A DNA stretch of 9,155 bases, from assembly GCF_003334315.1 (NCBI RefSeq), contig NZ_QOWR01000091.1; one strand, 5' to 3'. Position numbers and translations under genes: made by a program. This DNA comes from Escherichia coli. GTDB taxonomy: Bacteria; Pseudomonadota; Gammaproteobacteria; Enterobacterales; Enterobacteriaceae. The notes under the pieces are model-generated. The model was not told the origin of the DNA. It worked only from the letters and a program-made list of their open reading frames with translations, and did no database searches. The stretch's first letter is position 1. The number at the start of each line of letters is the position of its first letter. Positions 8,602-9,155 of the stretch are shown here, piece by piece.

Positions 8602-8871
8602 ACAAAAACCTTACATTAACGCTGGTTATGTTTAGGGTGGCGTATATTAAGGTTTTTTATGAATTGTGACAGCTTTTTACCATTAATAGGTATGACTATT
8701 GCGGCACGTTATTTTTACACTGGTTATAAAAGTTGCCGTTTGCGTAGAATGTAGACAAAAGCATGGTGTCCTGGGACGGGGAGGTTAACGTCATAGTGAA
8801 AAGGAGCGGTGGCACCGAGCAGGTCATCATGTAGTGGAAGTGCCTGGAGGAGGTGAGCAGGCAGGGCAAGA

Positions 8872-9155
8872 TTACGAAAGCCTGTTCCCCGCAAGGACTG
8901 ACGCCAGATAGTTTCTCTCCATGGCTGCTTTTTGCATCTTACGTCTTAACCCTGCCTTGAATACCTTATCATTAGTCAAAATATTAATAGCGATGTGCCG
9001 TATCCCTGAAAATAATTCTGCTGCATTTCCTCTTCTTATTTTGCAGTCGTCTTCATTCATTACCACGTCCAGACGCCAGTGCAGCTTATTCTCCACGTGC
9101 CAGTGGTTTCGGATTGCTGTGGCGAACTTCTCTGCGGTTAAATCAGCAGAACTGA
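8872..9155 (-). CDS. ISAs1-family (H-repeat-associated) transposase, C-terminal portion; 5' part lies beyond the window end
   Basis: The minus-strand frame is open from the window edge to the TAA at 8872-8874, reading ...[93 protein letters not shown]. The HW.VEN.LHW.LDV..NED..R.R motif is characteristic of ISAs1/H-repeat transposases. The track ORF 8872..9096 is only the part after an internal GTG. Confidence 0.8.

Follow-up and report, generated by a model that had tools for sequence, protein, structure and literature searches.

An ISEc1 (H-repeat) end upstream of nfrB in Escherichia coli: probable edge of an Rhs/VgrG island between cusS and nfrB

Genes and features of the window

The stretch of Escherichia coli DNA analysed here (the window, 9,155 nucleotides) carries nfrB, nfrA and ybcH, with the right end of an IS1 on its left side and the 3′ end of a transposase gene on its right side (Table 1). 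The nfrB gene of the window differs from that of CP53 at 2 nucleotides and from that of K-12 at 27. The closest relative, 2018-11-3CC (locus L011), shows 2 mismatches to the window over 8,702 bp. No genome in the collection is identical to the whole window, the IS1 junction at the left end being different. In 2018-11-3CC an identical IS1 lies in fimD, 3,512 bp away, which indicates that the window genome has undergone a 3,512-bp deletion adjacent to IS1. The deletion took out fimH entirely, along with the 3′ portion of fimD and the 5′ portion of sfmF. Further to the right, argU is followed directly by envY; the DLP12 prophage, which occupies this position in K-12 and includes appY and ompT, is therefore absent. 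A search of the whole window against Rfam recovered the tRNA-Arg only.

The reading frames of nfrA and nfrB are not preserved everywhere. In four of the relatives examined that bear the island described below, O157:H7 included, nfrA and/or nfrB is annotated as a pseudogene with an internal stop or frameshift. The receptor pathway for N4-like phages may have been lost repeatedly, or some of these annotations may be assembly errors.

Table 1. Features of the window and related coordinates; positions preceded by an L number refer to the corresponding locus of another genome (L002, K-12)
Feature	Position	Strand	Remarks
IS1 right end	1-453		InsB C-terminus, NF033558 126 bits; terminal repeat ...AAGTTGGAGTCATTACC ends at 453
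sfmF, last 117 bp	454-570		fused directly to IS1
tRNA-Arg (argU, anticodon TCT)	1448-1524		Rfam match
envY	1570-2331	minus	starts 45 bp after argU
ybcH	2514-3404	minus	intact ORF
nfrA	3405-6377, or to 6398 with the first start codon of the ORF	minus	intact ORF
nfrB	6364-8601	minus	intact ORF, 745 codons, GTG start
Native nfrB upstream region	8602-8743	minus	142 bp, 100% identical to K-12 (L002 9180-9321)
Weak sigma-70-like candidate	8644-8670	minus	GTCACA 8665-8670, 15-bp spacer, TAATAT 8644-8649; 8/12 matches
nfrB-side island end segment	8744-8861		118 bp; neither IS nor K-12 backbone
IS tip inside the gap	8862-8871		10 bp
Terminal inverted repeat CAGGGCAAGAT	8862-8872		eight independent copies start aligning here
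ISEc1/H-repeat, terminal 294 bp (end downstream of the transposase gene)	8862-9155		element length 1,291 bp, whole element seen in relatives
ISEc1/H-repeat (ISAs1-family) transposase, 3′ end	8872-9155	minus	gene runs past the window end
Distal junctions (outside the window)	L001 10753; L007 6488; L008 5279; L009 10751; L010 10753
Pseudogene annotations in relatives	L007 1-4937; L008 1496-3733; L009 4006-6978; L010 4005-6978		nfrA and/or nfrB

The H-repeat end and the gap upstream of nfrB

On the minus strand, the transposase frame is open from 9153 to a stop codon at 8872-8874 (94 codons, 93 residues). The original prediction had read this frame as that of an ISAs1-family (H-repeat) transposase, encoded on the nfrB strand with its 3′ end 270 bp upstream of the nfrB start. 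Both statements are confirmed. The fragment matches the C-terminus of the NCBIfam profile NF033564, 'ISAs1 family transposase' (profile positions 256-314 of 314), with 82.1 bits and E = 4e-23, where the curated cutoff is 70 bits; the full-length CP53 orthologue scores 415 bits. 'ISAs1 family transposase' is also the annotation in 99.9%-identical genomes, in which the gene is full-length and encodes 378 amino acids. The gap between the two co-oriented genes spans 8602-8871.

The ends of the element were set by copy-to-copy comparison; a generic inverted-repeat finder missed the short imperfect ends. In a megablast search with positions 8400-9155 as the query, H-repeat copies at unrelated loci align from query position 463, which corresponds to window position 8862. 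The IS end, correctly expected to lie somewhere in the gap, is located at this position, 10 bp past the transposase stop codon. The opposite end, which falls outside the window, reads CAGGGAAAGAT in relatives and is in inverted orientation. CAGGG-type terminal inverted repeats are typical of the ISAs1 family. In genomes that are 99.9-100% identical over the shared part, the element measures 1,291 bp and its 378-aa ORF is intact. A BLAST search with the CP53 element recovered 1,291-bp copies in five other contexts, among them the ydcC locus of NCTC9966, a yafV-linked copy and two copies within the island of strain 042.

There is essentially no difference between this element and known ISEc1, the H-repeat of the ISAs1 family. 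The H-repeat of E. coli Rhs elements, whose K-12 copies include ydcC and yhhI, likewise has a length of 1,291 bp and a single 378-aa transposase ORF matching NF033564; the window copy is CAGGG-ended as well and would lie downstream of an Rhs core, as in the K-12 Rhs elements. Its identity to the copies at the RhsE/ydcC locus and elsewhere is 96-98%. What distinguishes it is the locus, between cusS and nfrB, which is empty in K-12; the window contains its last 294 bp. Positions 8862-9155 would thus represent the terminal part of a 1,291-bp ISEc1, the classical 'H-repeat' of Rhs elements. Archer et al. 2011 (PMC3032704) describe the H-repeat as Rhs-associated and catalogued as an IS, with transposition unobserved; PMC10711316 deals with ISEc12, not ISEc1.

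Alignment of 8602-8871 to K-12 places the junction with native DNA at 8743/8744: identity is perfect from within nfrB to 8743, with no similarity beyond, and the sequence past this point is absent from K-12. In the megablast search, K-12-like genomes match query positions 1-344 only, that is, to window position 8743. A small class of genomes, including strain 042, matches query positions 1-462, to window position 8861; in strain 042 the 118-bp segment lies next to nfrB and the IS is absent there. The 118-bp segment is 88-100% identical in all island variants examined (L001, L003, L007, L008). It thus marks the conserved end of the island on the nfrB side. The K-12-identical portion of the gap should hold the nfrB ribosome-binding site and probably holds the nfrB promoter.

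No coding signal was found in the 118-bp segment. The possibility that it is a remnant of Rhs coding sequence was rejected, as neither its six-frame translation nor tblastn with four Rhs/tip proteins produced a significant match; the best one (E = 0.035 over 15 aa) falls in backbone DNA.

The Rhs/VgrG island between cusS and nfrB

As the original prediction had stated, K-12 MG1655 carries cusS upstream of nfrB, co-oriented with it and 149 bp away. In the relatives, cusS and nfrB are separated by a vgrG-Rhs island of 8-12 kb, and the nfrB-proximal component of this island is the H-repeat. The order on the nfrB strand is cusR, cusS, vgrG, a chaperone-like, DcrB-related gene, a PAAR/Rhs toxin gene, in some strains immunity genes and orphan toxin tips, the ISAs1 transposase, the 118 bp and nfrB. 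The complete order from cusS to nfrB was seen in CP53, 2018-11-3CC, 2017.11.01CC and O157:H7, and 2009C_3996 and FFFEB2 carry the same island up to the edge of the fetched stretch, which ends before cusS. Both cusS and cusR are intact in every relative whose fetched stretch includes them (n = 4). The distance from the far IS end to the cusS stop is 6.5-10 kb in the relatives. The IS truncates the main Rhs gene in CP53 and in the genomes closest to the window, as their annotation also shows. At the same site, strain 042 carries toxin/immunity genes that are more numerous and of other kinds, along with other ISAs1 and IS1 copies.

The cusS-side boundary of the island falls within the last codons of cusS (L002 9322-9344 versus L001 17305-17326). 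The CusS protein ends in ...RFVITLPA in K-12 and in ...RFVIMLPERE in island strains, and 23 bp of K-12, with the cusS stop codon included, have no counterpart in the island strains.

This locus has been described before. In Jackson et al. 2009 (PMC2935791, Table 3), Rhs 'position 4' lies between nfrB and cusS; it is the only clade IV locus of E. coli and serves there as an example of the displacement of C-terminal tips. Archer et al. 2011 (Table 6) list an 'RHS region b0570-b0569' (rhsW3, with three tips) that is missing from K-12 and B. The position 4/clade IV locus, a vgrG-linked T6SS effector island, and rhsW3 have the same flanking genes as the island of the relatives, which is absent from K-12; the vgrG-Rhs organisation, the dissociated C-terminal tips and the core fragments are shared as well. 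A difference from the published locus is that the genomes closest to the window have an Rhs gene cut short by the IS. The H-repeat as a constant nfrB-side component, and the exact boundaries, are not covered in the available parts of these two papers. An H-repeat and an Rhs/VgrG island between cusS and nfrB are a documented, common and already known haplotype of E. coli.

We infer from the relatives what lies beyond position 9155 in this genome, namely the remainder of the element, followed by the Rhs gene and by cusS. In the window lineage, the IS is most probably joined to a truncated Rhs core, as it is in relatives that are 2 nucleotides apart from it over 8.7 kb, and cusS and cusR are expected to be intact about 6.5 kb beyond the IS. 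The H-repeat copy would then form the nfrB-proximal edge of an accessory island carried by many E. coli between cusS and nfrB, and K-12 would represent the island-free haplotype, in which cusS abuts nfrB.

The IS-nfrB junction was found in one piece in 2,468 of 5,426 complete E. coli genomes (∼45%; megablast of 8400-9155), and its carriers include phylogenetically distant genomes such as O157:H7. At this frequency the junction is a common haplotype of ancestral origin, not an event peculiar to one strain. The five nfrB-linked H-repeat copies compared all have an intact ORF of 378 codons, with pairwise dN/dS values of 0.10-0.56. Their pairwise nucleotide divergence is 1.2-3.3%, against 0.8-2.2% for nfrB in the same genomes, a comparison that gene conversion among H-repeat copies could blur. 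The similarity of the two ranges is consistent with long co-residence of the H-repeat and nfrB, and fits an old IS copy that was inherited with the island and is not a recent insertion. The junction of IS, 118 bp and nfrB would thus be old and shared by descent among ∼45% of sequenced E. coli.

A minority of chromosomes (hits H67, H69, H70) match 8400-9155 best only through an H-repeat copy at another locus, which implies that these strains lack the 5′ end of nfrB and the region upstream of it, or carry them in highly diverged form.

Six loci share one and the same nfrB-side junction, but each of five lineages has its own distal junction, and three of these five have it at different positions within Rhs core sequence. 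We searched the 5,426 genomes for an empty site, using the joined flanks of the CP53-type IS, and the flanks were contiguous in none. This suggests that the flanks have been rearranged since the insertion. None of the copies examined is flanked by a clear direct repeat that could represent a target-site duplication. Between the CP53-type flanks, GGTGAGCAGG and GGGGAGCAGC, 8 of 10 bases agree, possibly by chance. Because these flanks are contiguous in none of the 5,426 genomes, we discarded a simple insertion into Rhs and prefer deletion or recombination at the IS. In the five lineages sampled, the distal variation could stem from repeated IS-adjacent deletion, from recombination anchored at the H-repeat, or from ordinary recombination between Rhs repeats.

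The constancy of the nfrB-side junction and the variability of the distal one raise the possibility that the H-repeat is a fixed downstream anchor for the turnover of Rhs toxin/immunity cassettes, acting through one-ended IS-adjacent deletions or as a homology arm with other H-repeat-linked tips. Such a role is compatible with the best explanation for the contents of the window, and it would accord with the absence of contiguous CP53-type flanks and of target-site duplications, and with the intact 378-aa transposase ORFs and their dN/dS values. However, the same varied distal flanks could arise by homologous recombination between Rhs core repeats or by tip displacement (Jackson et al. 2009), neither of which involves transposase activity, and the sample comprises five lineages only. 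The H-repeat has, according to Archer et al. 2011, not been observed to transpose, and dN/dS values below 1 could also result from gene conversion from active copies. We therefore hold the anchor role as a tentative idea, with the odds clearly against it. Still less probable, in our estimate, is that the nfrB-linked H-repeat is a long-maintained, functional transposase copy that drives or anchors Rhs cassette turnover, or, as a lesser variant, that it influences nfrBA-ybcH, and the NGR glycan receptor for N4-like phages, by read-through. If true, a functional anchor copy would explain both the invariant nfrB-side junction and the repeated occurrence of distal junctions in the Rhs core.

Expression of nfrB next to the IS end

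The genes nfrBA-ybcH form one operon, and an nfrB::lacZ fusion in K-12 shows low-level expression, induced post-exponentially and higher at 37 °C; expression is decreased in flhDC and fliA mutants and increased in an rpoS mutant (PMC8669469). A genomic SELEX study reports a weak holoenzyme peak in the K-12 nfrB-cusS spacer, in its section on heat-shock sigma promoters. Published work searched for a mapped start of nfrB transcription or a FliA ChIP-seq site yielded this weak peak only; PMC8669469 does not give the start site.

Consensus scans, which are not a functional test, detected neither a sigma-70-like promoter nor an intrinsic terminator in 8500-9155, whichever strand was read. On the minus strand, a custom scan of 8590-8880 gave only the 8-of-12 candidate discussed below, and no convincing match to the sigma-28 or sigma-32 consensus. 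The fold of the inter-gene RNA is unremarkable (z = -1.2). The original prediction had pointed to a weak candidate promoter on the minus strand. Its -10 element, TAATAT, is where it was said to be, whereas its -35 element, GTCACA, had been placed one base off, at 8666-8671; an alternative -35, CTGTCA at 8672-8667, would leave a spacer of 17 bp. The candidate falls in DNA shared with K-12 and scores below the threshold of the consensus scan.

Insertion sequences can activate downstream genes through outward-facing or hybrid promoters and through read-through, as in the IS insertions upstream of flhDC. The present arrangement is similar to these systems in that the IS end lies upstream of the downstream operon and is co-oriented with it. 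Unlike in those systems, however, no -35/-10 consensus is present at or near this IS end, which lies 260 bp from the nfrB start with the 118-bp spacer and the complete native region in between, and the arrangement is a common, ancestral one rather than a new mutation. The identity of the proximal 142 bp to K-12 and the lack of a promoter or terminator consensus at the IS end suggest that nfrBA-ybcH is most likely transcribed from its own promoter, which would be weak and FliA-activated as in K-12. Some read-through from the transposase gene may occur, as no terminator was detected between its stop codon and nfrB; the potential for it is not new, however, since cusS in K-12 is also co-oriented, 149 bp away, and no terminator was called in the shared DNA. 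On the basis of sequence, an effect of the IS on nfrB expression is unsupported: the IS most likely leaves nfrB transcription unaffected, and nfrB is most likely expressed as in K-12. If the K-12 promoter reaches past the 142 bp into cusS, the island strains would differ from K-12.

The original prediction had gone further, in proposing that an IS insertion replaced or displaced the cus locus and altered the expression of nfrB-nfrA-ybcH, and with it susceptibility to phage N4, by read-through or from an outward promoter. As an event specific to this strain, the insertion would account for the absence of the 118-bp segment and the IS end from K-12, and the co-orientation of the transposase with nfrB, together with the lack of an intrinsic terminator consensus in the intervening 270 bp, would allow for read-through. 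Neither half of the proposal is supported. Intact cusS and cusR lie beyond the 8-12 kb island in all four relatives in which they were reached, and a junction present in 45% of complete genomes is not specific to one strain. What speaks against altered expression is the K-12-identical DNA next to nfrB, the 118-bp spacer, the lack of a promoter-like site on either strand of 8500-9155, and the co-oriented cusS at the same side of nfrB in K-12. We regard this scenario as very improbable. Another reading takes the ORF, of which 94 codons are visible in the window, for a frame open by chance or a piece of a degenerate pseudogene that lacks IS identity. It is refuted by the match of the ORF to NF033564 (E = 4e-23, above the curated cutoff) and by 99.9% DNA identity to annotated 378-aa transposase genes.

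The reading we prefer, with a probability of roughly 0.9, is that the window ends in an ISEc1 end at the edge of the Rhs position 4/clade IV island, with an old junction, an intact cus locus and an nfrB promoter as in K-12. The exact boundaries of the island end (8743/8744) and of the IS end (8862) are useful for annotation. The proximal regulatory DNA of nfrB is the same as that of K-12, and a loss of copper/silver sensing should not be inferred from an H-repeat beside nfrB. The pattern of a constant proximal and a variable distal junction provides a small lead on the remodelling of Rhs tip arrays.
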